This document shows positions 15,033 through 32,000 of a stretch of 32,000 nt of DNA, one piece after another. The stretch spans positions 504,046-536,045 of the forward strand of contig NZ_JAZGQK010000003.1 of assembly GCF_036422035.1 (NCBI RefSeq), read 5' to 3'. The notes below the pieces were generated by a model. That model saw nothing but the letters and a program-made list of their open reading frames with translations. It made no database searches and was not told the origin of the DNA. The position numbers were made by a program, and so were the translations under genes. Positions within the stretch are counted from its first letter, which is position 1. The number at the start of each line of letters is the position of its first letter. This DNA is from Plantactinospora sonchi. Lineage in GTDB: Bacteria; Actinomycetota; Actinomycetes; Mycobacteriales; Micromonosporaceae.

Positions 15033-15307
15033 ACAGTGCCATCCGATCACCAAGAGGCGGCCCATACCTCGCCGGCTCCGCTGACAGCAAGAGCGGGGAT
15101 CTGTCACCCGTCTGTCACGGCGAGAGCTGCCAGCGCGGACAGTCCCCTGACAGATCCGGATCCCTTCCGACAGCACCCTTCCCGAGGTATCGTCCCGCGT
15201 CTTCGCCCGGGCGCTACCCACGCCTATGCGCGATCGTCCCATGATTACCAGTTTGAGAGGTACGGACATGATCTTCGTCCCCATGCAGGCCAGTTTGGCG
15301 GCCGTCG

Positions 15308-16357: not shown

Positions 16358-16760
16358 GCAGTCCTACCGCGGCACGGCAGACACCACGCCTACCACGCAC
16401 ACTGCCGACCCCGCGTCCGCCGCAGTCGAGGTGTGGACCGCCGAACGCCTCCGTGCCCTGGGCGTAACCACCACCCTCGCCACCGCCGCCTCCGTACTCG
16501 GGGTCAGCCGCTCCCAGGCGTACCGGCTCGCCGCCACCGACACCTTCCCCACGCCACTGATCCGGGCCGGCACCCGCATCATCGTCCCAGTCGCCGGCCT
16601 GCTCCAGCTTCTGCTGCTCGAAAGCCCCGCCCCGGCCGCCGACGACCGGCGACTTGATCCCGTCGGCGAGACGAGCGTGGATGCAACGACCAGGCCACCA
16701 GCGGACTATGCCCACCACCGCTGGCGGCACCGCGTCGAGCACCAAGGAGACGATGCGTGA
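16332..16760 (+). CDS. xis: excisionase-like helix-turn-helix DNA-binding protein
   Basis: AGGAG lies upstream of ATG at 16332. The motif WTAERLRALGVTTTLATAASVLGVSRSQAYRLAATDTFPTPLIRAGTRIIVPVAGLLQLL is an excisionase/MerR-like HTH. Its stop overlaps the integrase start (GTGA at 16757-16760). Confidence 0.65.
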   Translation: MSTHLNPTEQSYRGTADTTPTTHTADPASAAVEVWTAERLRALGVTTTLATAASVLGVSRSQAYRLAATDTFPTPLIRAGTRIIVPVAGLLQLLLLESPAPAADDRRLDPVGETSVDATTRPPADYAHHRWRHRVEHQGDDA

Positions 16761-18229
16761 AGGGTTCCACCTTCAAACGTTGCGGCTGCCGCGACACCAC
16801 CTCGGGCCGGCGACTGGGGCGTTCCTGTCCCCAGCTCCACCGGCCCGGCGGTGGCTGGTCCCGCAGCCACGGCCAGTGGCACTGGCAGATCGAAGTTCCC
16901 GCTCGCGCTGACGGGAGTCGCCGGCCGCTGCGGCATGGCCCGTATCCGTCTCAGTCAGATGCCGACGCGGTTCTGGACCGCATCCGCGCCGCGCTCGCCG
17001 TCCCCGACCCCACCGACCCACACGCCACGGTCAAGACCGGCGACCTCATCGAAACCGCCGCCAAGACCGGCGCACCCATACCCACGCCGGATCAGATCCG
17101 CCGGGCGCTGCACCTGGACATCACCCCGACCGAACTGCCGACCCTGGGGGAGTACCTGACCGACTGGCTTGCCGGGCGTAAGAACATCAAGCAGGGCACC
17201 CTGCGCTCGTACGAAGGCCACGTCCGGCTGTACCTGATTCCGTACCTTGGCCACCTGCGCATCGACCGGCTCCGCCCCGGACACATCGACGCGATGTACG
17301 ACGCCATCGACGAACGCAACGCCACCATCGGCACTCTGCGCGCCAGCCGCGACCAAGCTAAGCGGGACCAGGTCAAGCGCCAGCGCATCGTCGGCCCGGC
17401 AACCCAGCACCGCATCCACGCCACACTGCGCAAAGCCCTCAACGACGCGATGCGCCGCCACCGGCTCATCGACACCAACCCCGCCGTCATGGTCGAACTA
17501 CCCCCGGCCCGGCCACCGAAGCCGACCATCTGGACCGACCAGCGCGTCAAGACCTGGCGCGACACCGGCAAGATCCCCAGCCCTGTCATGATCTGGACCC
17601 CCGAACAGACCGGACGATTCCTCGACCACACCCACGACGCCGGCGACAGGCTCTACGCCCTCTACCACCTCGTCACCTTCACCGGCCTCCGCCGAGGCGA
17701 AGCCTGCGGCCTGCACTGGGACAACGTCGACCTCGACGCCGCCACCCTCACCGTACGGTGGCAACTCGTCCAACACGGCTGGGTCACTGCGATCGACACT
17801 CCCAAGACCACCGACAGCGAGGCAGCCGTCGCTCTCGACGCCGAAACCATGGCCGTCCTGCGCGCCCACCGTGCCCGGCAACACCGCGAACGACTCGCGG
17901 CCGGTGCCGCCTGGATCAAGACCGGCCTGGTGTTCACCAACCCGACCGGCGGTCAGCTACACCCCGCCGACGTCACCGACCACTTCCACCACCTCGCCAC
18001 CCAAGCCGGCCTACCACCCATCCGCCTTCATGACCTTCGCCACGGCGCCGCCACCATGGGCCTCGCCGCCGGCGTCCAAATGAAAGTCATCTCCAACCGG
18101 CTCCGCCACTCCAGCCCTCACTTCACCGCAAAGTTCTACGGGGACGTACTGCCGGAGCTCTCTCACGCCGCTGCCGAAGCAACCGCGTCGGTCGTTCCGC
18201 GTCAACGTGGCGTGACATGGCCTACGTAG
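16757..18229 (+). CDS. int: tyrosine-type site-specific integrase
   Basis: The N-terminus KGSTFKRCGCRD...WHWQIEVP is the actinomycete integrase DNA-binding arm domain. Catalytic residues are in context: GLRRGEACGLHW (Arg), HDLRHGAAT (His-x-x-Arg) and RHSSPHFTAKFYGDV (His...Tyr). Confidence 0.9.
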   Translation: MKGSTFKRCGCRDTTSGRRLGRSCPQLHRPGGGWSRSHGQWHWQIEVPARADGSRRPLRHGPYPSQSDADAVLDRIRAALAVPDPTDPHATVKTGDLIETAAKTGAPIPTPDQIRRALHLDITPTELPTLGEYLTDWLAGRKNIKQGTLRSYEGHVRLYLIPYLGHLRIDRLRPGHIDAMYDAIDERNATIGTLRASRDQAKRDQVKRQRIVGPATQHRIHATLRKALNDAMRRHRLIDTNPAVMVELPPARPPKPTIWTDQRVKTWRDTGKIPSPVMIWTPEQTGRFLDHTHDAGDRLYALYHLVTFTGLRRGEACGLHWDNVDLDAATLTVRWQLVQHGWVTAIDTPKTTDSEAAVALDAETMAVLRAHRARQHRERLAAGAAWIKTGLVFTNPTGGQLHPADVTDHFHHLATQAGLPPIRLHDLRHGAATMGLAAGVQMKVISNRLRHSSPHFTAKFYGDVLPELSHAAAEATASVVPRQRGVTWPT

Positions 18230-18649: not shown

Positions 18650-20395
18650 ATGGCCAGCGCTCTGTTGACTGAACTCTACCCTGTTTCGCCGACGAACTTG
18701 CCAGCGGGCTGGGAGCTCAGGCCACTGGGTGAACTGATAACTGATGCGCGCAGCGGCTTCTCATCCGGTTCGCACAATAGCGATGGGGTTGGCATCCCGC
18801 ACTTGCGTCCGATGAATATTGACCGCGATGGCAGTGTAAACCTTAACCAAATCAAGTACGTCTCGGCGGATGCATCTACTCTCCGGCTCCAGCCAGGCGA
18901 CATCGTCTTTAACAACACAAACAGTCGCGAGCACGTCGGCAAGAGTGCCGTCTTCGACTTGGTTGACGCCGAGTGGGGCTTCTCTAACCACATAACTCGC
19001 CTTCGCTTGCACCAAGGGCTTCTACCCCAGTTCGTAGCCTGTCAGCTCCTCTATCTATGGGAGTGTGGATACTTCCGCTTTCATGCGAAGCAGCACGTGA
19101 ATCAAGCGAGCATCTCGACAAGTACGCTGACCAGCCGAGTCCCGCTGCTGGTTGCTCCGCTGTCCGAGCAGCAGGACTTGGTTGACCGTATAGAACGGAA
19201 CCGGTCCATACTTGACTCCATCACTACGGCGGTGGGCGGTGCGCGATCCCGACTCGGTCGTTTCGAAGACCAGACCATCCTTGATGCTATCGCTGGTCGC
19301 CTCGTGCCGACAGAGGCTGAGTTGGCAACGGCGAGGTCGGGCACGTATGTTTCAGGCAGCGAGCTACTCAAAAAGATAAACGATAGAGTAGCCGCCCAAG
19401 CGGGTGAGCTCTTCAATGCAAAGCCGCGGCGTTCATATAAGCGAAGCATCATCGATGTATCCACATCAAATGCTAGTGGTCTTCCCGATGGGTGGGTCCA
19501 GGCGCGGGTGGACGAGGTCGGCCTTGTGACATTAGGCAAGAAGCGGGAACCCAGCTCTCATTCGGGCCCATATATGAGACCCTATCTGCGCGTGGCCAAC
19601 GTCTACGAGGATCGCATCGATGTCAGCGACGTGCTTGAGATGAACTTCCCGCCGCAGGACTACAAGACGTACCGGCTGGAGTATGGCGACATACTCTTGA
19701 ACGAGGGCCAAAGTCCGGAGCTGGTTGGTAGGCCGGCCATGTATCGGGGGGAGCTGCCGGGCGGGTGCTTCCAGATGACGCTGCTTCGGTTCCGTGCGCA
19801 CCCAGGGGTGAGTGCGACGTTCGCTCTCTTGGTTTTTCGTGCCTACTTGCGCACCGGTCGGTTTCGAGAAGCCGCCCGATGGAGTACAAACATCGCACAC
19901 CTTAGTACGCAACGGTTTGCGGCCTTGCCGTTTCCTCTCCCGCCACTGGAGGAACAAGAGCGAATCGTTGAAGAAGCGACGCGGAGGCTTCGTGCTGCGG
20001 AGAACCTTTCGCAGGTGCTTTCGGCGATCGGCGATCGAGTGCTATTGGCCAGGCAAGCTTCCCTTAAGGCCGTCTTTCCTGGGGCAGTTGTTTATGGTGT
20101 CGTTCCCGCCATAGTCGAGGAAGCTGGCCAAAGTGAGTCTTCTCCCACAGGACGGAGCACGGCTCGACGATCACGTGCGGGTGGCCGAAGTGCGACAAGA
20201 GTCGACCTTCTGAAGGCGCTATCCGATGCCGAAACTGCGCTTAGGCCAGAGGAGCTATTCGACGCCTCCGGATATTCGGAGGAACTTATTGATGAGTTCT
20301 ATTCGGACCTGCGCAGACATATCTATTCGGGCAGCGTAAGGGAGGTTCGCGACGCTCATGGCGAGCCATTCCTAAATTTGGCGGAGCGGCAATGA
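18650..20395 (+). CDS. hsdS: type I restriction-modification specificity subunit (HsdS) with an extra C-terminal domain of about 100 aa
   Basis: There are two target-recognition domains (LPAGWELRPLGELI...GDIVFNNTNS and LPDGWVQARVDEVG...GDILLNEGQS). Each is followed by a conserved coiled-coil spacer (PLLVAPLSEQQDLVDRIE; PFPLPPLEEQERIVEEA). Confidence 0.85.
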   Translation: MASALLTELYPVSPTNLPAGWELRPLGELITDARSGFSSGSHNSDGVGIPHLRPMNIDRDGSVNLNQIKYVSADASTLRLQPGDIVFNNTNSREHVGKSAVFDLVDAEWGFSNHITRLRLHQGLLPQFVACQLLYLWECGYFRFHAKQHVNQASISTSTLTSRVPLLVAPLSEQQDLVDRIERNRSILDSITTAVGGARSRLGRFEDQTILDAIAGRLVPTEAELATARSGTYVSGSELLKKINDRVAAQAGELFNAKPRRSYKRSIIDVSTSNASGLPDGWVQARVDEVGLVTLGKKREPSSHSGPYMRPYLRVANVYEDRIDVSDVLEMNFPPQDYKTYRLEYGDILLNEGQSPELVGRPAMYRGELPGGCFQMTLLRFRAHPGVSATFALLVFRAYLRTGRFREAARWSTNIAHLSTQRFAALPFPLPPLEEQERIVEEATRRLRAAENLSQVLSAIGDRVLLARQASLKAVFPGAVVYGVVPAIVEEAGQSESSPTGRSTARRSRAGGRSATRVDLLKALSDAETALRPEELFDASGYSEELIDEFYSDLRRHIYSGSVREVRDAHGEPFLNLAERQ

Positions 20396-21933
20396 GGCTT
20401 GAGAGTCTGTATATCCGGTCTTGGAAGAATCTGCAAGATTTTGAAATCCACTTCTCGGATGTTCAGACTACCGTGCTGGTGGGACAGAATGGAACAGGGA
20501 AGTCAAATGTACTGGAAGCCCTGATCATAATTTTCCGGGATCTAGACCTTGGAGCGCCTCCGCTCTTTGCGTTCAAACTTGCCTACCGATGCAAGGGCAA
20601 GTCAATCCGCGTGGATTGCGATCCGGCACGTCGGGGCCGCACTGCCCTTATTGAGGTCGACGGTGAACGGTGGCGTGCTGATCGATTCTCCCGTAAGGGA
20701 GGCGGGGAGTACCTTCCTGGTTTTGTTTTTGGCTACTATTCAGGCCCGAGCAATCGAATGGAACGGCACTTCGAAAGCCATCAGATCCGTTTCGCAAGCG
20801 ATCTCCGTGAAGGAGCAGACAGGCCTCTCCGCCCATTGCTATACGCGCGCCTTGTTCACAGCCAGTTCGTTCTGCTGTCCTTCTTCGCTCGCGAATCCGG
20901 TGACCGTGAAGTTCTCACACGCTTCCTGCGAATTGTGGACCTTGATTCGGTATTGTTCGTCCTAAAAAGGCCGTCATGGTTCAACCCGAACAGAGGCGCA
21001 GACCCTACGAACCCAGGGGACCCCCGGATCTGGGGTGCACGCGGCGTGGTGCGTGACTTCGCCTCTCGCCTGTACCGTATTGCATTAGCGCCTATGCGGG
21101 GACGCCGGGGCTCTGAGCGCCTCTACCTGTATCTGAAAGACAAGAAGGACTTGCTTGCCCTTGCTGACGGCTACGATAACCAGGCCGAATTCTTCAAGGC
21201 ACTTGAGAGCTTGTATATATCTGATCTAATCGAGGATGTTCGAACCCGGGTCACCATAAGTGGCAGCGATGATGCTCTTACGTTTCGCGAGTTAAGCGAG
21301 GGCGAGCAGCAGCTCCTGACGGTATTAGGTCTGCTTAGGTTTGTAGAGGGTCAGGAGGGGCTCATTCTGCTTGATGAGCCCGACACGCATCTGAACCCGT
21401 CCTGGAGCTTGGACTACACCTATCTCCTGAAGACACACGTGTCTGATCCAGATTCAGCCAATATCGTGATGGCCACGCACGACCCGCTGGTTGTGTCGGC
21501 ACTTACCCGCGATGAAGTCCGCGTAATGAGACGAGGCGAAGCGGACAGGATCCATGCAGCGGTTCCTGAAGAAGATCCTAAGGGCATGGGTGTGGCCGGC
21601 CTTCTGACGAGCGAGCTCTACGGGCTGAGATCGCAACTCGATCGAGAGACACTCAACGCGCTGGATCGCAAGCGCGACCTAGCATCGCTCGACACGTTGA
21701 CGCCAGAGCAACGCGCCGAGTTGTCGTCACTCAATGAGTATCTGGCTAACCTTGACTTTTCGAGGACCACCCGCGATCCGCTCTACAAGCCCTATGTCTC
21801 GGCTATGACCGTACTGGAAAATCACCTTGCCTTGCGGAAGGCTACTTTAACGCCGGGGGAGATCGACCGGCGGCAAGAGTTAGCCAACGAAGTGGTCCGA
21901 TTGCTGCTTGAAAGGCTGGAGGCGGAGCCGTGA
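20392..21933 (+). CDS. ptuA: ABC/AAA_21-type ATPase, Septu PtuA-like
   Basis: Motifs: Walker A GQNGTGKSN, ABC signature LSEGEQQLL, Walker B/D-loop LILLDEPDTHLNP and H-loop MATHDP. Its ATG overlaps the hsdS stop (ATGA). It is followed by an HNH gene, as in Septu. Confidence 0.7.
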   Translation: MRLESLYIRSWKNLQDFEIHFSDVQTTVLVGQNGTGKSNVLEALIIIFRDLDLGAPPLFAFKLAYRCKGKSIRVDCDPARRGRTALIEVDGERWRADRFSRKGGGEYLPGFVFGYYSGPSNRMERHFESHQIRFASDLREGADRPLRPLLYARLVHSQFVLLSFFARESGDREVLTRFLRIVDLDSVLFVLKRPSWFNPNRGADPTNPGDPRIWGARGVVRDFASRLYRIALAPMRGRRGSERLYLYLKDKKDLLALADGYDNQAEFFKALESLYISDLIEDVRTRVTISGSDDALTFRELSEGEQQLLTVLGLLRFVEGQEGLILLDEPDTHLNPSWSLDYTYLLKTHVSDPDSANIVMATHDPLVVSALTRDEVRVMRRGEADRIHAAVPEEDPKGMGVAGLLTSELYGLRSQLDRETLNALDRKRDLASLDTLTPEQRAELSSLNEYLANLDFSRTTRDPLYKPYVSAMTVLENHLALRKATLTPGEIDRRQELANEVVRLLLERLEAEP

Positions 21934-22754
21934 TCTTCATCGATCTAGTCAGGCTTGAGCAGCGGGTGGAGTTGTCATGGAAGGAAAAAGCTGCGGCGGC
22001 GCTTCTTGACGTCCGTGCTGCAACGACAAGCGACGATCGCAAGAAGGTTTTGACCAAGCACGCAAGTCTCTGGGCGGAAGTAAAGCATCATTTGGCGGGG
22101 GCGAGCACAGGCAAGTGCTGGTACTGCGAAACTCGGGACGTGCGGTCCGATGCTGCAGTTGATCACTTTCGTCCGAAGAGTAAGGTCGAGGAAAGCCCGG
22201 AACACGAAGGTTATTGGTGGCTTGCCTTCGATTTCCGCAATTATCGTTATTGCTGCACTTTCTGTAACTCAACCCGTGTGGACCGTGTGGGCGGCAGTAG
22301 AGGCGGTAAGCAAACGCACTTCCCCCTTCTAAACCCAGAGGACCGTGTCTTCGAGGAGGGTGATATTGCGGTCGAACGCCCGATGTTGTTGGACCCGATA
22401 CGAGCTACGGACCCGGCCCTTCTGTACTTCCGGGAAGATGGCGTTCCTGAGCCAAGGTACGGGGGCGAAAAAGGATTACGAGCGAGCAAGTCTATTGAAA
22501 TTTACCACCTTAATCACACGGAACTCGTAGAAGCGCGTCTTGAAACGCTGAATCGGGTCCGGGAGTTGATTTCTCTTGGTAGAAGATACTATGATAGCTG
22601 GCTCCTCGACGGATCGGACGAGCCTGCTTTTGAATCCGTCATCGCCCAACTCAAGAAGCTCTGTGCCCCAGGGGCCGAGTATTCCGCAGCGGTCAGGGAC
22701 TTGGTAAAAGGTTATCGAGATTCTGAGCATACGTGGATCGACCAAGTTTTCTGA
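21930..22754 (+). CDS. ptuB: HNH endonuclease, Septu PtuB-like (TIGR02646-type)
   Basis: CWYCE...DHFRPKS...YRYCCTFCNSTR forms a Cys4 + His-Asn-type HNH core. Its GTG overlaps the ptuA stop (GTGA at 21930-21933). Confidence 0.7.
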   Translation: MIFIDLVRLEQRVELSWKEKAAAALLDVRAATTSDDRKKVLTKHASLWAEVKHHLAGASTGKCWYCETRDVRSDAAVDHFRPKSKVEESPEHEGYWWLAFDFRNYRYCCTFCNSTRVDRVGGSRGGKQTHFPLLNPEDRVFEEGDIAVERPMLLDPIRATDPALLYFREDGVPEPRYGGEKGLRASKSIEIYHLNHTELVEARLETLNRVRELISLGRRYYDSWLLDGSDEPAFESVIAQLKKLCAPGAEYSAAVRDLVKGYRDSEHTWIDQVF

Positions 22755-22770
22755 TAGAAAGAACGAGTAG

Positions 22771-24267
22771 ATGAGTAGCGCCCGAGACATCGTTCAGAAG
22801 CTTTGGAGCTATTGCAGTATTCTGCGGGATGACGGCCTGTCCTACCCTGACTACGTCGAGCAGTTAACGTACTTGCTCTTCCTCAAGATGGCACACGAAA
22901 CTGCCACGACTCAGAGCGGCGTTAATATTGTACCGAACGGTATGGACTGGCCGAGCCTTGTGGAACGCCGGGGGGATGATCTCCACCGACACTACGGTGA
23001 AATCCTGAAAACTCTAGGCGCCTCTGATGGGATGCTGGGCTTAATCTTCCGCGACTCTCGGAATAAGATTAAGGACCCACATAAGCTGCGGCTGCTCGTT
23101 GCGGATCTTATCGATGCTAGGCATTGGAGTGCGCTCGATATAGATGTGAAGGGTGATGCTTACGAGGGCCTGCTCGAAAAAAACGCCCAAGACACCAAAA
23201 GTGGCGCCGGTCAGTACTTCACGCCGCGACCCGTTGTAGACGCTATTGTTGAGTGCATTGACCCGAAGCCGGGGGAAAAAATCCTTGACCCTGCATGCGG
23301 AACCGGGGGCTTCTTAATTTCGGCCGCTCGTCATCTCAGGATGCGCAATCCGGACATGACGCCGACGGAGGAAGAGCACCTACGTCTGCACGCTATTCGG
23401 GGAGGGGAGCTGGTAGGTGAGGTTACGCGGCTTGCTGCCATGAACCTCCTTCTCCACGGCATAGGTCCGAACGCTGGCACAGCCGAGCCGCCGGTGGCAA
23501 CACAAGACAGCCTTGCAGTCCCGCCGAAGGAACTGTACGACGTCATCATCACGAACCCGCCTTTCGGGAAGCGCTCGAGCGTAACTCTTGTGACGAAGGC
23601 TAAGGAAGGTGACGATGAGCGCCGTCGTGTGCTGCGCGATGACCTATGGGTCTCGACTTCGAACAAGGAGCTGAATTTCCTCCAGCATGTTGCGGTGAGC
23701 TTGTCGCAGGGTGGGCGGGCCGCAGTTGTTGTTCCTGACGGCGTTCTCTCGGGTCCTGGAGCGGGTTCTGCAATCAGAAGGCGGCTACTCGAAACATTCG
23801 ACGTCCATACGCTTCTGCGGCTGCCTGCTGGCATTTTCTATGCGGCAGGAGTGAACGCGAATGTTCTCTTTTTTGATCGCAAGTCGCCTGGTCAAGGCTC
23901 GGAGCGAGGACGCTTGTGGGTATACGATTTGCGCACAGATAAGCGATTCACGCTAGTAGGTCGTCGCCTGAGCTCCGCTGACTTGACAGAGTTCACGAGA
24001 CTTTATGAGCCGGCGGATCGTGCGAAGCGGGAGGACTCAAGGGCGGAGGATCCGGTAGGCGGTAGGTGGCGAAGCTTTAGCGTCGATGACATACTCAAGC
24101 GGGAAGATTGCAGCCTGGATCTGTTTTGGCTTCCGTCGCAAGGCAACGCTATGGCGACTCAGAACTTTGACGAGATTGTAGGCGATCTTGTGGCTGATTT
24201 GCAGTTTGCGTTGGCCGAGGCTGCGAAGCTCATGCCAGGGGACGAGAGGCGCAGGGAAGAGCGGTGA
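22771..24267 (+). CDS. hsdM: type I restriction-modification N6-adenine DNA methyltransferase (HsdM)
   Basis: HsdM N-terminal domain (IVQKLWSYCSILRDDGLSYPDYVEQLTYLLFLKM), SAM-binding motif I (ILDPACGTGGFL) and catalytic motif IV (ITNPPFG). Confidence 0.9.
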   Translation: MSSARDIVQKLWSYCSILRDDGLSYPDYVEQLTYLLFLKMAHETATTQSGVNIVPNGMDWPSLVERRGDDLHRHYGEILKTLGASDGMLGLIFRDSRNKIKDPHKLRLLVADLIDARHWSALDIDVKGDAYEGLLEKNAQDTKSGAGQYFTPRPVVDAIVECIDPKPGEKILDPACGTGGFLISAARHLRMRNPDMTPTEEEHLRLHAIRGGELVGEVTRLAAMNLLLHGIGPNAGTAEPPVATQDSLAVPPKELYDVIITNPPFGKRSSVTLVTKAKEGDDERRRVLRDDLWVSTSNKELNFLQHVAVSLSQGGRAAVVVPDGVLSGPGAGSAIRRRLLETFDVHTLLRLPAGIFYAAGVNANVLFFDRKSPGQGSERGRLWVYDLRTDKRFTLVGRRLSSADLTEFTRLYEPADRAKREDSRAEDPVGGRWRSFSVDDILKREDCSLDLFWLPSQGNAMATQNFDEIVGDLVADLQFALAEAAKLMPGDERRREER

Positions 24268-24418
24268 TGCTGCGACGGCCCTTGTCCTGTCTATGGCTGC
24301 CGACCGGCGCCCCGCAGGAGGCGGTGATCCGTCGGCTGTCGGCTTCCGTTGACGGCAGCGGTCACCGCGTAGTGAGTAGAGCCGGATGGAGCGAGATCCG
24401 CACATGCGGTTCGGGAGG

Positions 24419-24474
24419 CAGGCGGCAAAAGCAGACGGGCGGGGTGCTCTGCGGGTGCTCGGGACGCGTTGGAC
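24419..24474 (+). repeat. repeat copy 3: CAGGCGGC + 33-nt GGGTGCTC..CGTTGGAC motif (no hairpin)
   Basis: gggtgctctgcgggtgctcgggacgcgttggac (24442-24474) matches copy 1 at 29/33 positions and copy 2 at 28/33. It is preceded by ggttcg-N7-ggcggc, the same spacing as the T-loop/acceptor of the tRNA fragment at 6198-6216. Confidence 0.6.
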
Positions 24475-24698
24475 GGGCATGGCCGTCGAGGGCCTGTGCT
24501 GTATGCGTGTGGGCGTGGGAGTCAGGCCGAACTGGTGACTCTGTGCGGACCGGGTGTGTCGGAGTTGCTGGTCCAGGTGAGCTTCCTGGGGTGGCATGCG
24601 CAAAGTCCGCTGGTCGAGAGAGCACGTGGGTCACCAAGACTCGCCTGCCGCTCGGCGGCTGCCTTGGCCGATCGGGCAAACCGGCCAGGGGTGTTTCC

Positions 24699-26309
24699 TC
24701 ATACCGCTGCCGCTTGGGCGATGTCCTTCGGGCAGATGGAGCGCAGAGGGCAGGTGCCGCAGGCGGGCGTGCCTGGTCCGCACCAGCGTCGTCCGATCAG
24801 CCAGGCGGGGTAGTCCAGCTCTCCGGGCCGCTCTGGGTGTAGCCATCGCGCGACCTCCACCATGTGGTCGAGGTCGTCGCGCTCGGCGAGTCGTGTACGG
24901 AGGAATACCCGCCGAACATGTACGTCGTAGGCGATGTCCGTCCCGGACAGCTCCCGGATTGGCACTGCCAGGTCGCGGGCCAGGATCTCTACTGCCATCG
25001 CTGACTTCTTCTGCGCGATGCCGGGGAACCTCCGCAGCCGGGTGGCCAGATCGGTCGCGCGGGGTTCGTCCGCCCAGATCCGGCCGGCGTCGCCGCCATA
25101 TTCGTTCACGACGATGATGGCGGCGGCGACCAGCCATCCGGGCATGTTGTTGATGAACCGATGCAGTGCCGTCGGCTGGGCGACGGCAGCACGTACCTGC
25201 TCTGGTTCGGACGCCATTCGTGCTGGGTCGAGGTGTCCGAGGCGCTGATGCAAGTCGTACGGTGCCTTCCAGGCCCGCTCGGCGGGTATGCCTTGGTCGA
25301 AGATGACAGCCAGCAGGAACGCGAACGGGTCGGTCAGGATCAGCGTGTTGGCTTCGGGGTGCGGTGTGAATCGGGGTGGGGTGCCGGCCCGTTCGGCCTG
25401 ATGTTCCCGCCCGTACTTCAGCAGGGCAGTGACGATGGCACGCGCATCTGGTCGGACGGGAACGGGTGTGCCGGTGGGTGCGAGCGGCCGGATGGTCTCC
25501 TGGGGCTGCTTGATGAGGGCTACGGGTTGTTCTGGCGCTGGTGGTTGGGGCTGCCGGTCGTACCAGGCGAGCTGTTCGCCGAGCGGTAGCCCGGCCAGCG
25601 GTCGGCGAACCGCCGCTCCGGCCTGGGTGAGCAGTGGCACGATTGCTTGCGCGTATTCGTCGCCGGCGTGGATTTCGACCACGCGGTCGCGCACCTGGCT
25701 CTCTGCGCGCATCAGCTTGGCCGCGACCCATTGGCCCCATACGCGCCGGTAGTCCTTGCTCTGCTCGGCGAACGCGGTGTCGTACGGTGCGAGCACCGTC
25801 TCGGGCAGCACCAAGCCGTCCTCGGCGCTCAGGATGTAGTAGCGGCGGGCGTGCCGTTCGGCGTAGGCGCGGCGGCGGATGAACAGCGGCGAGACGTACA
25901 GGTCGCGGGCCGGCGCAGGGTGGTCGAGTTTCGTCTTGACGCAGCCGACCAGCGCGATGTCGGCCCGGATCTCGCCAGGCTCGGTCGGCCTTGATTGTCC
26001 GCTTGGGGGCTGCGCCGGGATCGCCGGCTGGGCTGTGGAGGAGGGCGATCGGCTGGTGTCGGCGAGCGTGTACCGGCCGCGCCCGACCCGGATGAGCGGC
26101 GTCCCGCACGGGCTCGACGGGCCACCGGTGGTATCCCGGGTCATTCCCTGGATGACCGGGCCGAGCGACTGTACGCGCTGCGTCGGGTCGAGCCGTTGGA
26201 CCTCGTCGATCAGCTCCGCTCGGCTGAAGTCGAACTTGTGTTTCGTGAGCTGGCGTGCTGCGGTGAGGATGAGCTGCCAGGCCGGCTGGTCCGTCACTGT
26301 CGCTTCCAT
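24699..26309 (-). CDS. fusion protein: N-terminal wHTH-like module + DUF6884-like domain + EndoIII-type HhH-GPD domain with a [4Fe-4S] cluster loop
   Basis: Central part: IALVGCVKTKLDHPAPARDLYVSPLFIRRRAYAERHARRYYILSAEDGLVLPETVLAPYD (DUF6884-like, from memory). C-terminal part: an HhH element (LRRFPGIAQKKSAMAVEIL), YDVHVRRVFLRTRL (compare VDTHIFRV of EndoIII) and CGPGTPACGTCPLRSIC, which is exactly Cx6Cx2Cx5C. Confidence 0.7.
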   Translation of the reverse strand: MEATVTDQPAWQLILTAARQLTKHKFDFSRAELIDEVQRLDPTQRVQSLGPVIQGMTRDTTGGPSSPCGTPLIRVGRGRYTLADTSRSPSSTAQPAIPAQPPSGQSRPTEPGEIRADIALVGCVKTKLDHPAPARDLYVSPLFIRRRAYAERHARRYYILSAEDGLVLPETVLAPYDTAFAEQSKDYRRVWGQWVAAKLMRAESQVRDRVVEIHAGDEYAQAIVPLLTQAGAAVRRPLAGLPLGEQLAWYDRQPQPPAPEQPVALIKQPQETIRPLAPTGTPVPVRPDARAIVTALLKYGREHQAERAGTPPRFTPHPEANTLILTDPFAFLLAVIFDQGIPAERAWKAPYDLHQRLGHLDPARMASEPEQVRAAVAQPTALHRFINNMPGWLVAAAIIVVNEYGGDAGRIWADEPRATDLATRLRRFPGIAQKKSAMAVEILARDLAVPIRELSGTDIAYDVHVRRVFLRTRLAERDDLDHMVEVARWLHPERPGELDYPAWLIGRRWCGPGTPACGTCPLRSICPKDIAQAAAV

Positions 26310-29300
26310 TCAGGGGCCGGTCGCAGGTCCAGGATGTCGGGTACGCCCGCCGCGCCGGTCTCTCGTCCTCGGAGCAGGTTCAGCAGGTCCTCCTGCCTGG
26401 GCTGGCCGAACGCCAGCCGGTACATCACCAGGTCCGACTTGAGCCGGTCGAGTTTCGCCTGGTCGCGGCTGAGTGGGTACGGCAGGACGTGCCGTTCGAT
26501 CTTCGCTGGCCCGGGGAACACCCAGTACGGCGCGAAGTCGCCAAGCTCTCCAGAGACCGCTCGTGCCGCGTCGTACAGGGCCTTCCACACGTCCGGCTCG
26601 CGGGAGCGCAAGGCCTCAGCGCGGTGTGCGGCGGCGACGTTGCGGCGTACGGCGTGCCCGCCGAACCGGTGCACTCGGCCCTCACGCTGCTCGAAGTCGA
26701 CGGGGTTGGCGGGGGTGTTCCAGTGCACGACGGCTGAGCACCACTGGTGGAAGTCGATGCCTTCCTGGCCGGCGCTGGTGGTGGCGACAACGAACGGCCA
26801 GAACGGGCTGTTGAAGGCTCGACGGACGGCCTCCTTGCGGTTGACCTGGGATTGTTCCTCGCCGCGGCCGCCGTAGCGCAGCGCGAACCGGCCGGGCAGT
26901 TTGATCCGCTCGTCGGGGTGGTGCGGGTTGAAGGCTTCGTACGTCGACGGTCGACTGGCGATCGCCTGCCGCGCCTCGTCGGCGAGCCGGCAGAGTTCCT
27001 CGTCGTCGAGGCGGGTGTCGGCAGCACCGCTGCGCAGGGTGTGCAGGTGCTCGTCGAGGACGGCCTGCAGACCGCCGGCGGCGCAGTACCGCAGCACCGC
27101 CCGCCAGTAGACCGAGCCCATCGACAGGCCGTCGAGCAGCTGCGCGGATTCCGGCCGGTTGAAAAGAGACCGCAGCCCGTTCGCCAGGACCGCCGCGGCG
27201 CGCCAGTGCCCTGCGGGTGTGACCGCATCGCCGGGGTGGATCAGCCGGGACAGTGCCCGCCAAGCAATGTTGCCCGGCCCATGCAGGCCGATCTCCGCGA
27301 CGCTGCCGAGCAGACCGTCGAGATGGTCCGTTGCCGGGTAGCGGGCATCGCTGGCCAGCTCGCGGACTCGCGCCACGTGCCGGTCCAGGCCGGTGGCCGT
27401 TCCGTCCTCTTCGGCCGAGGTGCCCAGGGCGGCAGCGGCGTCGTCTAGGCCGGGGTCGGCGCCGGGCCACCGGAAGACCAGCTCCCACGGCTCGGCCGGG
27501 CTCGCTTCGATGGCCTCCGCATCGCCCGAAGCGCGAGCAAGCAGCCGTTCCCGCACCTCGCGTTCGAACACGTCGAGCGGTGCGGTCTCGTCGGGCCGTC
27601 GGCGGGCCAGGGCCAGCGGATCGCACAGCGCGGCCAAAGCGGGATGGGGCCAGAACAGCGCCAAGACGCTCATCGCCGCCGGTCGGCCGTGTTCCAGTCG
27701 GTAGTCGAGATGCCGGTGCCCTTCCCCGGCGGCGCCGAGCCGGCGTTCGGCTTCGTAGCTGAGTAGCCCTGCCACCGCGGTGGGTGTGGCGTTCCAGGAC
27801 GAGAACAGCAGCCGCTTGGTGATGCCGTCCCGCGCTGCGGTGGTGAACGGCTCGCCGAGCGCGTGGTAGGGCATGGATGGGGGCAGCCACAGCAGTCGCC
27901 ACCAGCCCTGGTCGACGGTGTCGGCGGCGAGCTGCCGGAGCCGGGCGTTGCCGAGATCGACCAGTTCCCGTCGGTTGATCGCCTCGGCATCGAGCAGCTG
28001 GGTGGAGGCCAACAGCGCGGACACCTCGGGGTGCGGCTGGCCGTCGAGCGCGGCGCGAACCTTGTCACCGAGCTGGTAGCCGTCGAGGAAGTTGAGGAAG
28101 TACGGGGCGGACTTCCAATACTCGACCGTCATCGGAGCGCCGACGACACCGGCAATCTTGCGCATCGCCACGTAGCTGCGGACATCACGCACGTCGAGGT
28201 CATCGGCCACGGTGAGGTGCTCCCGCAGCATGCCATCCTGCATCAGCGCGGGCCGTTCCGTACGACACATGACCCGCAGCAGCAGGCCGCGCAGCCAGTC
28301 GCGCAGGTCACCGCAGGGCTCGCCGCGCACCAGCGCGTCCCGGTACGCCTCGAACGCCTTCGTCACGTCGGCGTGCCACGACTCGTCGTCGCTGAGGAAC
28401 CTCAGCACCTGCCGGAAGTCGCGGTAGTGGTCCTCGCCGGCGGTGGCCTCCTCGGCGAAGGTGAACGGCTTGTACGGGGTGGCCGACAGCAGCAGCACCC
28501 GGGCGGCCCGGTAGTCGAACAGGTGTCGGGCGAGGTCGGCGCCCTCGCCGCCGTGGGGGTCTAGCAGCTCCCGAAACCGTTGGAACTCGTCGAGGATGAT
28601 CAGGTCGGGTTCGAGAACCTCGACGCCGGCGGTCGCGAGCGTGGTCCGGAGAGCACCGGTGAGCGTGCGTGCCGTTTCCCGTAGTGCGTCCGGTAGGGCG
28701 GGGCGGCGGCCGATGCCGTCGAGCAGCGCGTCGAATTCGTGGAGCAGGCCACGTCGGCGGGCGCGGCGGAGGAACTCGCGGGTGATGGTGTGATCGAGCT
28801 TTCCGTCGAGCTGCGCCCATAGCCGGTTGCACTGTTCCTCGAACCGGCCGGGGCTTGCGACGCCGGCCTGCAGGGCGCGTAGCGCGGCCCGGGTCCGCCA
28901 ACCGTTCCATGAGCTCGCCTGTTCGAGGATCAGGAACAGCAGCGCCCGTTCCTCGGCCGTACCTGTGCGCCACCCCTGGTCGAACGAGGTGCCCGGGGTG
29001 AACGCCACCAGGTTGATCGGCTTGCCCCCGGTGGTGGGTGCGGCGTTGAGCTGGTCGGCGTGCTTGGCGAGCAGGGTGAGCCGGCTGGAAAGCGTGACGG
29101 TTTCGTCGGGGGTGACCCGGAGCCGGGCGATGTTCTGCCGGGCGACATCTTGGTTGGAGCAGACGTAGACGACGTCGACCCGGTCCACGCTGTCGTCGTC
29201 CTGCAACCGCTGCAAGGTCTCAGCGATGACGCCTCGGGCGACGACGCTCTTGCCGAGCCCGGTCTCGTCGGCGACCAGGAACCGGCGAGTCGGATCGGTG

Positions 29301-29389
29301 CCGAAAAACCGGTCGATCACGTGCGCGACGGTGGCGCGTTGGAAGTCTTTTAAGCCGGCCATGACCGGCCCGGCGTCGTACCAGTTCAC
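26294..29389 (-). CDS. SF2 helicase, SNF2/RapA-like
   Basis: Motif I is FLVADETGLGKS, motif II LIILDEFQRF, motif III LLLSATPYKP, and motifs V-VI are VVATTSAGQEGIDFH...FEQREGRVHRFG. The preferred start is GTG at 29389, which overlaps the PLD stop (GTGA). The ORF is open to 29440. Confidence 0.85.
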   Translation of the reverse strand: MNWYDAGPVMAGLKDFQRATVAHVIDRFFGTDPTRRFLVADETGLGKSVVARGVIAETLQRLQDDDSVDRVDVVYVCSNQDVARQNIARLRVTPDETVTLSSRLTLLAKHADQLNAAPTTGGKPINLVAFTPGTSFDQGWRTGTAEERALLFLILEQASSWNGWRTRAALRALQAGVASPGRFEEQCNRLWAQLDGKLDHTITREFLRRARRRGLLHEFDALLDGIGRRPALPDALRETARTLTGALRTTLATAGVEVLEPDLIILDEFQRFRELLDPHGGEGADLARHLFDYRAARVLLLSATPYKPFTFAEEATAGEDHYRDFRQVLRFLSDDESWHADVTKAFEAYRDALVRGEPCGDLRDWLRGLLLRVMCRTERPALMQDGMLREHLTVADDLDVRDVRSYVAMRKIAGVVGAPMTVEYWKSAPYFLNFLDGYQLGDKVRAALDGQPHPEVSALLASTQLLDAEAINRRELVDLGNARLRQLAADTVDQGWWRLLWLPPSMPYHALGEPFTTAARDGITKRLLFSSWNATPTAVAGLLSYEAERRLGAAGEGHRHLDYRLEHGRPAAMSVLALFWPHPALAALCDPLALARRRPDETAPLDVFEREVRERLLARASGDAEAIEASPAEPWELVFRWPGADPGLDDAAAALGTSAEEDGTATGLDRHVARVRELASDARYPATDHLDGLLGSVAEIGLHGPGNIAWRALSRLIHPGDAVTPAGHWRAAAVLANGLRSLFNRPESAQLLDGLSMGSVYWRAVLRYCAAGGLQAVLDEHLHTLRSGAADTRLDDEELCRLADEARQAIASRPSTYEAFNPHHPDERIKLPGRFALRYGGRGEEQSQVNRKEAVRRAFNSPFWPFVVATTSAGQEGIDFHQWCSAVVHWNTPANPVDFEQREGRVHRFGGHAVRRNVAAAHRAEALRSREPDVWKALYDAARAVSGELGDFAPYWVFPGPAKIERHVLPYPLSRDQAKLDRLKSDLVMYRLAFGQPRQEDLLNLLRGRETGAAGVPDILDLRPAPEWKRQ

Positions 29390-31137
29390 GCGCGCACCGT
29401 CCCCGTGATCGTCTCGCGTGCCGCCGTGATGACCCGCCACAGATCGGAAAAGCCCGCAGGCAGCAGTCGTTTGCTGTCACCTCTGGCTTCGATTCGGGCC
29501 ACCAACCGGGCCAGGTCGTCGAGCTGGTCCGGCCGGTCGACGAGGGCGTTGAGCAGCAGCTCGAGGATCCCGGTCCCGCCGGCGCGCCAGGCACCCGACC
29601 CGCCGGTGTCGCCGCCTGCGGCGGCGGCAGCCTCGGTGCCCAGGCCGAGGATCAGCAGCAGAAATCGCAGGAACTTCTCCGGGGTGTCGATCTGCTGGGC
29701 GAGGACGTGGTCGAGCCGGTGCGCGGGGTCGCCGATCAGGGTGGCGAGGACGACGGTCTGCTCTCGGCCGGTGGTGTCCTCGGCGGTGATGACGATGAAC
29801 GGGGTGATGTCGGCCAGCGCAAGTCCGGTGAACACGGCAGCCACCGGCTGCCCCGCCACGAGCGGCACCGCCTCACCGCGACGGGTGTGCACCTGCGCGG
29901 TGATCCGCACCCCCGGCAGATCGGGCAGGGCGTCCTGTGAGGTGAGCTCGATGCCGTAGCTGTCGGCTTCGGTGGTGACGGTGGCCGTCAGTGGGATGGC
30001 CGCGATGTCGCGGATCAGGTCCCGCAGCATGGTCGTTTCCGGCTCCGACTCGGTGGCATCGTGGCGGTCGTAGGGTTCGAGGATTCCGCGGAGACCTGCT
30101 TCCGGGCCGAGGACGGCGTTGATGCCCCACTGGGCGCGGCTGCCGGCCAGTTCCACCAACAGTTCGACGTTTCCGCCGAACGCCGCGTCGGTGGCGTTCG
30201 CGGAGCCGAGCAGGACCCGTGCCTGGTGGCCCTTCTCCACCACGTACACCTTCGCGTGCAGCCCGTGCAGCACCTCCTGGCCCGACGGCGTCCCCTCGGC
30301 GGGCAGACCGGCCAGGGCGCTGACCACGAACGCCTCCAACCCCGCCACCGTCTCCTCAGGTAGGCAGTCGAGGGTCTCCTGCCGGCTCACCAGGGCCAGC
30401 TGCCCGCTCGGTGCGCACCGGTCCAGCCCGCCCGGCGTGCAGAACGGCGAGATGACGAGGTGACGCGTGCCCTCGAAACGTGGCAGGCGAACACCGGGCA
30501 CGCCCAGCGCGTGGAAACTCATCTCCCGGGCTCTGTCGGGGAGTTCCCACTGGGCCCGGCGCAGGTCCTCGTTTAGCGCCTCGATCGCCGCCTGCCGGTC
30601 CGGCGGTAGTGGCGCGACCGCCAGCCGCACCGCATGCCGCAGGAGATCAGACAGCGGCCGGTTGTCCGCCTTCGGCCGTGGGCCGATAACACCGTCCAGA
30701 CGCAGGCACACATCCCAGCTGCGATCCTTGGTCAGGTTCCGGCTGAGCACCAGCAGCCGCAGGGACGTCTCGCCGGTTGTCTCGTCGTGGAAGCGCAGCG
30801 CCCACACCTTCGGGTGGAACAGGTGCCCGGGCTTGGGCCGGCGTACCTGGTGCACCATGGGCTCGACGAACGCCAGCAGCGCGGACTTCGTCGGGGGCAC
30901 GGCGATCTGCCCCGCTTGGCAGAACACGTCAATGCGGTCGGCGCAGTACCGTACGCCCTCCATCACCGTGATCGGGTCCGTCGACTCCCGCATACCGTGG
31001 GCGGCGAAGGCCAACGGGGCGACCAGCAGGCTCTCCAGGTCCAGGGTGAACGTCAACGCCACGGCTCGGGACAGTCGCGCGCCCGCTGGTGGGCGCAGCG
31101 CGTCAAGCAGCAGGGCGCGGGAGTCAGGCGCGAGCAC
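29386..31137 (-). CDS. phospholipase D-family (two HKD motifs) putative nuclease
   Basis: HKD 1 is LFHPKVWALRF...LLVLSRNLT. HKD 2 is GLHAKVYVVEKGHQARVLLGSANATDAAF. The ORF is open to 31242. GTG at 31137 gives a 14-nt overlap with the upstream gene rather than 119 nt. Confidence 0.8.
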   Translation of the reverse strand: MLAPDSRALLLDALRPPAGARLSRAVALTFTLDLESLLVAPLAFAAHGMRESTDPITVMEGVRYCADRIDVFCQAGQIAVPPTKSALLAFVEPMVHQVRRPKPGHLFHPKVWALRFHDETTGETSLRLLVLSRNLTKDRSWDVCLRLDGVIGPRPKADNRPLSDLLRHAVRLAVAPLPPDRQAAIEALNEDLRRAQWELPDRAREMSFHALGVPGVRLPRFEGTRHLVISPFCTPGGLDRCAPSGQLALVSRQETLDCLPEETVAGLEAFVVSALAGLPAEGTPSGQEVLHGLHAKVYVVEKGHQARVLLGSANATDAAFGGNVELLVELAGSRAQWGINAVLGPEAGLRGILEPYDRHDATESEPETTMLRDLIRDIAAIPLTATVTTEADSYGIELTSQDALPDLPGVRITAQVHTRRGEAVPLVAGQPVAAVFTGLALADITPFIVITAEDTTGREQTVVLATLIGDPAHRLDHVLAQQIDTPEKFLRFLLLILGLGTEAAAAAGGDTGGSGAWRAGGTGILELLLNALVDRPDQLDDLARLVARIEARGDSKRLLPAGFSDLWRVITAARETITGTVRA

Positions 31138-32000
31138 CAGCAGCCTCCGGCAGGTCGGCGGCGCAGCCGTCGTGGATGTCGGCGAGGATCCGGCGTACCT
31201 GCGGCCACCGGAACACCAGTTGCCGGCTGCCCGACGCGCCACTCCACGTGCGGAGCAGCTTGTCGTTGACCAGCCGCGACTGGCCCTTCTTCACCGACCG
31301 TTCCCGCTCGGCCACGAGAGCCCGCAGGCCTGGGTCGATGGCCGCATCACCGGCTGCTCCGCTGGTCACCGCGTCGAGCCACCGCTCGATGAACCGGTGC
31401 GCCGCCGCGTTCGTGGCGATTCGCGGGTTCTGCTGGATCAACCGGCTCCACATCCCCGACCGCTCCCAGCCCTTGAGGCCGGGCAAGGCCGACACTCGAT
31501 CACTCCACTTCCGCAGGGCGTCGCGGTACACGTCCGTCGGGTTCTCGTGCTCGGTCAGACCAGCTTGTTCGTACCGCTCGGCCACGAGCAGGTTGTACAG
31601 CAACGCTGCGCCATGCATCGCCAGCGAGAAGCGCTGCGCGTCCCGGACCAGCGAACCGACCGGCTCCGGCGCGGCGAGCGCCGCCGGCTCCCACGGCACT
31701 TGGCCGTCGGTAACCGGCCGATGCTCGGGTTGGAGCAGGTACGCCAACAGTGTGGCCGGCGCTGCGGCAAGAAGCCTCTCCCGCAGCCAGCGGGCCTCCT
31801 GCGGATACAGCGTCAGTCCGCCGTCGACCTCATTCGGGAAGTTCGCCGGTGCTCCTGGCATCGTCGGCTGCCAGGCACCGCTCGACTGGTCGGCCAGTTC
31901 ATCGGCCTCGGACGAACCGGAAGTCACCCGTCGGCCCGGGGTGTCGTCGTCACCCGTGCGGATGCCGTACCGCAGCAGCGCCGCCGCGTAGATGGCCGAT
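31124..32000 (-). CDS. hypothetical helical protein, first visible gene of the PLD-helicase operon (5' end outside the window)
   Basis: The frame stays open from 31124 to the window edge (SAIYAAALLRYGIRTGDDD...), so the GTG at 31927 is not necessarily the start. Third-position G/C is high throughout. I recognise no family motif (RLVNDKLLRTWSGASGSRQLVFRWPQVRRILADIHDG at the C-terminus). Confidence 0.6.
   Translation of the reverse strand, partial: SAIYAAALLRYGIRTGDDDTPGRRVTSGSSEADELADQSSGAWQPTMPGAPANFPNEVDGGLTLYPQEARWLRERLLAAAPATLLAYLLQPEHRPVTDGQVPWEPAALAAPEPVGSLVRDAQRFSLAMHGAALLYNLLVAERYEQAGLTEHENPTDVYRDALRKWSDRVSALPGLKGWERSGMWSRLIQQNPRIATNAAAHRFIERWLDAVTSGAAGDAAIDPGLRALVAERERSVKKGQSRLVNDKLLRTWSGASGSRQLVFRWPQVRRILADIHDGCAADLPEAAGARA

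Follow-up and report, generated by a model that had tools for sequence, protein, structure and literature searches.

Four co-directional genes on the minus strand fill the right-hand end (24699-32000) of a 32,000-nucleotide (nt) stretch of the Plantactinospora sonchi genome (assembly GCF_036422035.1, contig NZ_JAZGQK010000003.1, positions 504,046 to 536,045; the whole of this stretch is referred to here as the window). Three of them match ZacA, ZacB and ZacC, the components of the anti-phage system Azaca, and the last (gene 4 below) encodes a fusion of the domains DUF7669 and DUF6884 with a predicted HhH-GPD DNA glycosylase domain carrying a [4Fe-4S] cluster. ZacA (31124-32000), a DUF6361 protein, is present as its C-terminal 291 amino acids (aa), with the N-terminus beyond the window edge; ZacB (29386-31137) is a single-chain phospholipase D (PLD)-family nuclease with two HxK...SxN motifs; ZacC (26294-29389) is a superfamily 2 (SF2) helicase/ATPase; and gene 4 (24699-26309) encodes 536 aa if read from an ATG or 532 aa if read from a GTG. 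Listing and translation of the open reading frames (ORFs), with the junctions read base by base, agreed with an earlier note on this DNA, which had described four minus-strand genes with overlapping stops and starts in an operon running past the right edge of the window: gene 1 does run off that edge, and orthologous loci add the ZacA N-terminus and a DUF429 gene.

Genes 1-3 were identified by profile searches. Gene 1, in which the note had found no placeable motif, belongs to the DUF6361/ZacA family, matching PADLOC ZacA (7.5e-68, profile positions 120-394 of 396) and Pfam DUF6361 (4.3e-23); gene 2 matches PADLOC ZacB (2.3e-171, residues 1-576 on profile positions 1-583 of 586) and gene 3 matches ZacC (E=0, 1110 bits, residues 5-1024 on positions 5-1016 of 1019). 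Because these matches cover essentially the full lengths of the profiled genes, the PLD-helicase core is that of a described system and not, as the note had supposed, an undescribed one; judged by profile match, genes 1-3 are the Azaca anti-phage system. The note's call of a defence operon was right, as was its tentative mention of Azaca.

The first ZacB motif (HPKVWALR...LSRN, aa 108-134) lies at 30793-30816 with 30736-30747 and the second (HAKVYVVE...GSAN, aa 294-314) at 30235-30258 with 30196-30207. The two HKD motifs claimed for this protein are present as regards histidine, lysine and asparagine (H108, K110, N134, H294, K296 and N314, together with G311 and S312, are invariant in 75 of 75 ZacB proteins), but the canonical aspartate is replaced by Arg115 and Glu301; the invariance of the catalytic residues fits an active single-chain PLD nuclease. 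ZacC carries the full helicase motif set previously ascribed to it: motif I (GLGKS, 29246-29260), motif II (DEFQ, 28580-28591), an SAT motif and motif VI (QREGRVHR, 26666-26689). Azaca loci elsewhere were collected by scanning a single genome of each species with a degenerate pattern, which gave at least 584 ZacC-encoding stretches; the best 80 were analysed (ZacC 36-94% identical, mostly Actinomycetota but also Chloroflexota, Planctomycetota and Proteobacteria), and the order ZacA-ZacB-ZacC was the same in all of those with enough flanking sequence.

Azaca is a three-gene anti-phage system, ZacABC, in the composition cited in bioRxiv 10.1101/2024.10.26.620412. In Bacillus, ZacABC breaks down the double-stranded DNA of phages as an ATP-dependent nuclease; cleavage needs all three proteins, the nuclease site and the Walker A motif of ZacC, hypermodified T4 DNA (bearing glucosyl-hydroxymethylcytosine) is preferred, and protection against T4 exceeds 10^6-fold (bioRxiv 10.1101/2025.07.10.664194). 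The P. sonchi locus resembles that system in having a DUF6361 protein, a two-HxK PLD nuclease and an SF2 helicase encoded in the same order by overlapping genes. It differs in that this clade adds DUF429 upstream and DUF7669-DUF6884-HhH-GPD downstream by way of overlapping codons, and in that the host is an actinomycete (Plantactinospora) rather than Bacillus. DISARM also pairs a PLD-family nuclease (DrmC) with a large SF2 helicase (DrmD), but no DrmA, DrmB or methylase is present in this operon, and a DISARM reading of genes 2 and 3 was rejected: DrmD scored 51.3 bits against a cut-off of 610 and DrmC 19.8 against 133, and the matches to DISARM, DpdE and RapA took in no more than the HKD motif or the C-terminal helicase lobe and fell far short of curated cut-offs, whereas ZacB and ZacC match over their full length.

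At the ZacA/ZacB junction the two genes overlap by 14 nt (ZacB GTG at 31137-31135, ZacA TGA at 31126-31124), and at the ZacB/ZacC junction they share the four nucleotides GTGA (29389-29386). The ZacC stop (26296-26294) can be overlapped by gene 4 from either of two starts, an ATG at 26309 (16-nt overlap) or a GTG at 26297 (GTGA, 4-nt overlap). The 16-nt overlap given in the note does exist in this genome, but the GTG is the likelier start, because all four orthologues compared have it, whereas one of them (locus L006, described below) lacks the ATG, and because the NCBI annotation of the P. sonchi protein (100% identical, “DUF6884 domain-containing”) is the 532-aa GTG form. Residue numbers of the invariant gene 4 positions discussed below nevertheless follow the 536-aa form. 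Since its start overlaps the ZacC stop, gene 4 is suggested to be co-transcribed with the Azaca genes; a scan of 24000-32000 gave no promoter-like site, and terminator-like sites were at chance level.

The AlphaFold2 model of the gene 4 protein, built on 67 homologues (predicted local distance difference test, pLDDT, 88.4), has three confident domains with disordered linkers: an N-terminal domain (~10-82), DUF6884 (~112-255) and HhH-GPD (~285-536). The first (26064-26285) matches Pfam DUF7669 (PF24706, 3e-16, aa 9-82), and its predicted secondary structure of three helices and a beta hairpin (H10-24, H30-40, H46-56, E72-76, E79-82) is winged-helix-like. The second (25554-25958) matches Pfam DUF6884 (PF21818) at 3.8e-46 (157 bits against a cut-off of 30, positions 1-135 of 135, aa 118-252). 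It carries the CxxxK motif described for DUF6884 by the Pfam authors (PMC11701544), here CVKTK (25929-25943), as well as an LSAxxG motif, here LSAEDG (25815-25832). The same domain matches PADLOC PDC-M57A over the whole 138-position profile (6.7e-29), which likens gene 4 to component A of the defence candidate PDC-M57; that profile, however, covers the DUF6884 module alone.

The separate model of the DUF6884 domain (pLDDT 96) has a YaaA/DUF328-like fold, its sole significant PDB match being E. coli YaaA (5caj, E 4.3e-5), and a relationship between DUF6884 and YaaA has been reported by the Pfam authors (PMC11701544). DpdC, a member of the DUF328/YaaA family, converts preQ0 to 7-amido-7-deazaguanine (ADG) within DNA (PMC5699537; bioRxiv 10.1101/2025.10.09.681413), so that DUF6884 belongs to a superfamily that includes both base-modifying DpdC and DNA-binding YaaA. 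The PADLOC matches of DpdC to DUF6884 are weak (~1e-3 here, covering ~60 of the 312 profile positions; 9e-5 in a stand-alone relative), and the one here reflects distant superfamily similarity only. DUF6884 shares with YaaA and DpdC the “cantaloupe” fold seen in 5caj, but it is shorter, forms a separate Pfam family and has its own CxxxK and LSAxxG motifs; unlike Dpd, it has no Dpd partners among the window ORFs scanned (a subset of them). The domain (aa 111-245 of the 532-aa form; ~25560-25970) also matches the phage families phrog_5935 (1.7e-19) and phrog_5436 (2e-12), so phages encode stand-alone relatives of this module.

The third domain (24702-25457) is an EndoIII/MutY-like HhH-GPD domain (EndoIII, endonuclease III), as the note had proposed, with a Cx6Cx2Cx5C cluster, and the structural comparison that the note had recommended recovered both the EndoIII/MutY and the YaaA folds. 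Foldseek gave 59 PDB matches at E<=0.001, those listed being mainly EndoIII (including that of D. radiodurans), MutY and MIG; the best was EndoIII 2abk (E 4.1e-7, template modelling score 0.77 on the target, ~20% identity). PDB sequence matches over the iron-sulfur (FeS) region were to MutY and EndoIII. The domain contains an HhH motif, GIAQKK (GIAQKKSA; 25005-25022), an Asp motif, YDVH (24918-24929), and the Cx6Cx2Cx5C cluster CGPGTPACGTCPLRSIC (24732-24782). Invariant in 67 homologues are C123 and K127 of DUF6884 and, in the glycosylase domain, K434, K435, D462, H464 and all four cluster cysteines. HMMER aligns D462 to the Asp of the MutY sequence VDGNV, and on motif comparison the HhH lysine (K434/K435) may be the counterpart of EndoIII K120. 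In fold, HhH motif, Asp in xDxH and Cx6Cx2Cx5C cluster, then, gene 4 resembles EndoIII, MutY and MIG, from which it differs in its low identity (~20%), in scoring under the nth and TIGR03252 cut-offs, in its fused domains and in its mobile-island distribution. The HhH-GPD part matches no model of PADLOC v2.0.0.

Two loci with gene 4 orthologues at 78-91% identity (L006 and L007) keep the order DUF429-ZacA-ZacB-ZacC-gene 4, and their flanks are otherwise different; the module aligns as a single 7.3-7.5 kb blastn block at 83-94% identity. The number of synonymous substitutions per site (dS) is broadly similar across gene 4 (0.12-0.43), ZacC (0.18-0.43) and ZacB (0.11-0.46), with ratios of nonsynonymous to synonymous substitution (dN/dS) of 0.21-0.37, 0.16-0.23 and 0.21-0.37, respectively. 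Taken together, the similar dS and these dN/dS values show a gene 4 that, to judge from its substitution pattern, is functional and inherited with ZacABC in the clade that keeps it. L006 carries in addition a decayed second copy (19440-20441), in which an internal part of ZacC (window 27636-27078) runs straight into an internal part of gene 4 (window 25638-25181); this copy adjoins an hsdM gene 90% identical to that of the window, and the intact DUF429-ZacABC-gene 4 module is ~8 kb away.

A DUF429 gene directly precedes ZacA in every close-clade locus with upstream room, with an overlap of 4 to 17 nt in several (L006 3172-3942 and L009 4268-5023; also L007, L010, L016, L053 and L175-L177), which places the start of the operon in this lineage outside the window. 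The 5' end of the operon was inferred from L009 and L016 (94% identical); full-length orthologous ZacA has ~410-420 aa. The DUF429 gene persists where gene 4 has been lost and is absent from more distant Azaca loci, and its product has a weak match to PADLOC PDC-S44 (2.3e-10).

At the other end, the 3' flank (24515-24698) is conserved with the module by blastn, at 88.7% over 186 nt in L009 and 77% over 141 nt in L006, and homology ends at 24515, the downstream boundary of the module. A G+C-rich 9-bp hairpin (24665-24687), 11 nt past the gene 4 stop, is a possible 3' end of the operon; it is weak evidence for a terminator, because the minimum free energy fold of the whole flank is no better than that of shuffled sequences (z -0.35), a result that also disposes of the flank as a structured RNA. 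An element of ~134 nt just 3' of gene 4 (24515-24648) is kept in L006 and L009 (L009 12744-12877), and a second copy in L009 (1473-1606, same orientation, 78% identity) lies ~2.7 kb 5' of the DUF429 gene. The module may thus be bounded by direct repeats, although the element may instead be a gene fragment, as the upstream copy lies within a 342-aa ORF.

Beyond this clade the association does not hold. Co-conservation of the fourth gene with the PLD-helicase pair had been set beforehand as the test of a four-gene system, and it was not found: an intact gene 4 follows ZacC in one of the 80 species-level Azaca loci (L009, Micromonospora sp. NPDC049101), three close relatives carry it truncated, and none of 86 loci encoding gene 4 relatives has Zac genes. 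The claim of a four-gene system fails because gene 4 is not co-conserved with ZacABC across genomes. By blastn, homology to the window ends within gene 4 at 26225 in Micromonospora zhanjiangensis (L010), at 26147 in Plantactinospora veratri (L016, ZacC 94% identical) and at 25856 in Verrucosispora (L053), each with ZacABC intact beside a truncated gene 4. In L011, L012 and L013 (Micromonospora spp. and Dactylosporangium sucinum) it ends at 26313, 26382 and 26370, at the ZacC stop or just before it, and gene 4 is absent. A type I-E CRISPR-Cas system takes its place downstream in L176 and L177, and in the closely related L175 there is no gene 4 and a UvrD-like helicase gene lies downstream. The idea of some other universal fourth gene was also discarded: when ORFs within 2.5 kb downstream of ZacC were clustered for 82 loci, no cluster exceeded 6 loci, the two largest (6 loci each) being a DrmD-like SNF2 helicase and a type IV PLD-helicase-DUF3427 enzyme.

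Proteins with the DUF6884 module stand near two other Azaca loci. In Pseudactinotalea terrae (L051, 11171-13335) a distant Azaca (ZacC 48% identical) is followed by a 251-aa ORF without a family match and then by a DUF7662-DUF6884-GIY-YIG protein, which shares the reader module of gene 4 but has a nuclease where gene 4 has its glycosylase. Micromonospora sp. NBC_00389 (L175, 340-2079, minus strand) encodes a 356-aa DUF7662-DUF6884 protein, whose C-terminal ~125 aa are unassigned, together with a 213-aa unknown gene; both are divergent in transcription from the DUF429-ZacABC operon.

Away from Azaca, the gene 4 family comprises 476 cluster representatives at E<=1e-5, of 500-780 aa and with DUF7669 or DUF7662 at the N-terminus; it is mostly actinobacterial and made up of stand-alone proteins, with hundreds of members in genomes and metagenomes. 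Homologues at up to 62% identity (L001, L002, L003-5 and L008; four distinct contexts) stand alone without ZacABC, and their neighbours include Mrr-like, MmeI-fragment, GIY-YIG, AbiE, type III restriction-modification (RM) and SMC-like ATPase genes. The 86 loci without Zac genes (80 metagenomic and 6 on viral contigs) have at least 1 kb of upstream sequence in 49 cases and at least 3 kb in 34. DUF6884 and HhH-GPD are fused in 32 of the 86 and occur as split adjacent genes in a further 5, evidence of a link between the two modules that does not depend on Azaca. In the split pairs (L109, L110, L111, L121 and L126) a ~430-aa HhH-GPD protein precedes a small stand-alone DUF6884 gene, the opposite of the order in the fusion, and in L111 (5266-7030) the two genes overlap. 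The HhH-GPD partner was considered as PDC-M57B and dismissed, as neither the HhH-GPD part of gene 4, the split HhH-GPD ORFs nor the L051 251-aa ORF had a PADLOC match; no other PDC-M57 model matched any protein scanned with PADLOC.

Many family members of 600-780 aa contain an additional conserved stretch (~150-200 aa) that separates DUF6884 from HhH-GPD, with no Pfam match and the consensus “...RWP...GW...VT...EGV..DDY...”; it is absent from the protein of the window. Two unrelated islands with gene 4 homologues (L001 15363-19251 and L008 18874-22016) have a three-gene module in common (~375, 490 and 431 aa), the last gene being an AAA_11/AAA_12 helicase and the first two having no family match, which may be a defence candidate. 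Our literature search returned no paper on PDC-M57, TIGR03252, DUF7669 or DUF7662, and among the papers listed DUF6884 was confined to the Pfam update paper and a single genome-mining preprint. Neither the combination of Azaca with a DUF6884-FeS HhH-GPD protein nor the gene 4 family was described in that literature, and the note's claim of novelty thus stands for the glycosylase-like fusion and falls for the PLD-helicase core, which is known.

The rest of the window adds further defence genes and a probable mobile element beside them. The type I RM/Septu block that the note had placed next to the operon was recovered as hsdS-ptuA-ptuB-hsdM (18650-24267, plus strand), a type I RM locus in which a Septu pair is embedded; its G+C content is 0.54-0.58, whereas that of the Azaca genes is 0.69-0.72. 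The window ORF lists contain no ORF of hsdR size, which may mean that the type I system here lacks restriction or that hsdR is encoded elsewhere. Consecutive genes for a replication-relaxation protein, a DUF2637 protein and a tyrosine integrase (14143-18229, plus strand) resemble an actinomycete integrative element at the border of the defence genes; a scan for tRNA genes as an integration site found none in the window. A radical SAM protein (10206-11327, plus strand) with a weak PADLOC match to pVip (viperin-like, 9.1e-10) may be a defence gene or an ordinary radical SAM enzyme.

Since genes 1-3 are Azaca and gene 4 is attached to them only in some Micromonospora-family bacteria, the locus is a lineage-specific variant of the known Azaca system and not a new four-gene system. 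We think it probable that ZacABC functions as Azaca here and that gene 4 is a facultative, co-transcribed glycosylase, probably self-sufficient, forming a second layer. ZacA, ZacB and ZacC would act together as an ATP-dependent nuclease on phage double-stranded DNA, as their Bacillus homologues do. In one Micromonosporaceae sub-lineage the operon is extended at both ends, by DUF429 at the 5' end and by gene 4 at the 3' end; the latter would be a passenger picked up from an independent family. In gene 4 the DUF6884 domain would be a putative DNA-base or lesion-binding module, and the whole protein a predicted DNA glycosylase, possibly also an apurinic/apyrimidinic (AP) lyase, whose action on invading DNA would be to take out a non-canonical base in the manner of Brig and Dag; the resulting abasic sites or nicks could serve ZacBC as entry points. 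We read gene 4 in this way because both putative active sites are conserved, because a GIY-YIG nuclease is swapped for the glycosylase in L051 and because Brig and Dag provide precedents. Brig1, with a uracil-DNA glycosylase fold (PMC11078745), and Brig3, with an alkyladenine DNA glycosylase-like fold (PMC13160076), are defence glycosylases, and Dag1 and Dag2 are HhH-superfamily glycosylases acting against 7-deazaguanine phages, of which Dag1 appears bifunctional (bioRxiv 10.1101/2025.10.29.685425). Brig and Dag each act as a single protein, found in a defence context, to excise modified bases specific to phages, a role that gene 4 may share by analogy; gene 4 and Dag also have the HhH superfamily in common, as stated for Dag in bioRxiv 10.1101/2025.10.29.685425. 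Gene 4 differs from both in its EndoIII-type [4Fe-4S] cluster, its winged helix and DUF6884 domain, and its place in an operon with a nuclease-helicase system.

The four genes, or five with DUF429, might instead constitute one obligate and undescribed system, in which the glycosylase recognises or excises modified bases and so licenses helicase-driven PLD cleavage. The overlap of the gene 4 start with the ZacC stop would fit such a system, as would a module passed on whole between differing flanks, its genes broadly alike in dS, the joined ZacC and gene 4 pieces in the decayed copy of L006, DUF6884 proteins with other C-termini near the unrelated Azaca loci L051 (GIY-YIG) and L175, and the preference of published Azaca for hypermodified T4 DNA (bioRxiv 10.1101/2025.07.10.664194). 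Bacillus ZacABC, however, suffices by itself for defence and for cleavage in vitro (bioRxiv 10.1101/2025.07.10.664194), 79 of the 80 species-level Azaca loci lack an intact gene 4, three close relatives have kept ZacABC intact beside a truncated one, and the gene 4 relatives have no Zac genes at any of their 86 loci; two or three adjacencies of DUF6884 and Azaca among ~83 loci could also lie within the range of defence-island co-location. An obligate system thus seems to us quite unlikely. We also doubt, if a little less, that gene 4 is a DNA-repair enzyme for base excision of oxidised or abasic lesions, carried on mobile islands with no role in defence and hitch-hiking behind ZacC. Its nearest solved folds are indeed the repair enzymes EndoIII, MutY and MIG, its NCBIfam name is “HhH-GPD-type base excision DNA repair protein”, the Pfam authors tie DUF6884/YfjM to the binding of abasic lesions and YaaA to oxidative stress (PMC11701544), and the gene is easily lost from the operon. 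Yet its distribution is patchy and strain-variable and not that of the core genome, the family is found next to Mrr-like, AbiE, type III RM, GIY-YIG and Azaca genes, PADLOC already lists the DUF6884 module among its defence candidates (PDC-M57A), the exchange of the glycosylase for a GIY-YIG nuclease in related architectures better fits an effector module, and the gene is under purifying selection inside a defence operon. Very improbable, finally, is an action on host DNA, by which gene 4 would mark or protect self for Azaca, with DUF6884 as a DpdC-like base modifier or the winged helix as an operon regulator: the weak DpdC matches (1e-3 here, 9e-5 in the stand-alone relative), the membership of DpdC, which turns preQ0 into ADG in DNA, in the DUF328/YaaA family and the winged-helix-like N-terminus would suit it, but most Azaca loci, including experimentally active ones, have no such partner, no DpdA/DpdB-type insertion machinery occurs among the window ORFs scanned, the gene 4 family is mostly stand-alone and the glycosylase catalytic residues are conserved.

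Several observations weigh against our preferred reading of gene 4 as a facultative defence glycosylase added to Azaca. DUF6884 proteins occur near Azaca in three layouts (gene 4, L051 and L175), and the overlapping start, the co-inheritance and the decayed ZacC-gene 4 copy of L006 could point to a closer functional link with Azaca than that of an add-on. The family's setting in defence islands is suggestive: PADLOC applied to 100 neighbour ORFs of family members gave sparse RM, CapP and RmrA matches, with no family in more than 3 members. The glycosylase domain scores 91.2 bits with TIGR03252 (6.1e-26; cut-off 136.5), 16.1 with nth (cut-off 211.7) and 16.9 with Pfam EndIII_4Fe-2S (cut-off 20.5), and the Pfam scan reported no HhH-GPD match for gene 4; with the TIGR03252 and nth scores below cut-off and Pfam HhH-GPD not reported, the domain is, on these scores, a divergent relative and not an equivalog. 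Relatives of DUF6884 and YaaA have been linked to DNA damage or oxidative stress (PMC11701544), which makes a repair role for gene 4 possible.

A broader proposal, which we put forward as speculation and think rather unlikely as a whole, is that DUF7669/DUF7662-DUF6884-HhH-GPD[4Fe-4S] proteins form a widespread and so far unrecognised family of single-gene anti-phage glycosylases that has been wired into Azaca in some Micromonosporaceae, where the lesions left by excision from modified phage DNA would be processed by the ZacABC helicase-nuclease complex. Each such protein would have two putative modules for binding DNA bases, a YaaA/DpdC-like reader and an EndoIII-like excision domain, the latter exchanged for GIY-YIG in relatives, and the outcome would be a nuclease-helicase defence primed by a glycosylase.

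The core finding is routine, as PADLOC-style annotation calls Azaca directly. What survives as new is a fusion of DUF6884 with an FeS HhH-GPD domain, whose gene overlaps the end of the Azaca genes at its start codon and is inherited with them in some Micromonosporaceae. Some strains have, apparently co-transcribed with Azaca, a predicted base-excision enzyme that close relatives lack; this amounts to a natural experiment on the trigger of Azaca, for which published data point to hypermodified T4 DNA, and this series of loci with and without gene 4 could tell whether base excision widens or sharpens the range of Azaca targets. Actinomycete phages are rich in DNA modifications, and the gene 4 family, in which a DpdC/YaaA-like domain is joined to an FeS glycosylase, often beside restriction and Abi genes, could extend the antiviral DNA glycosylases to a new architecture and to the actinomycetes.

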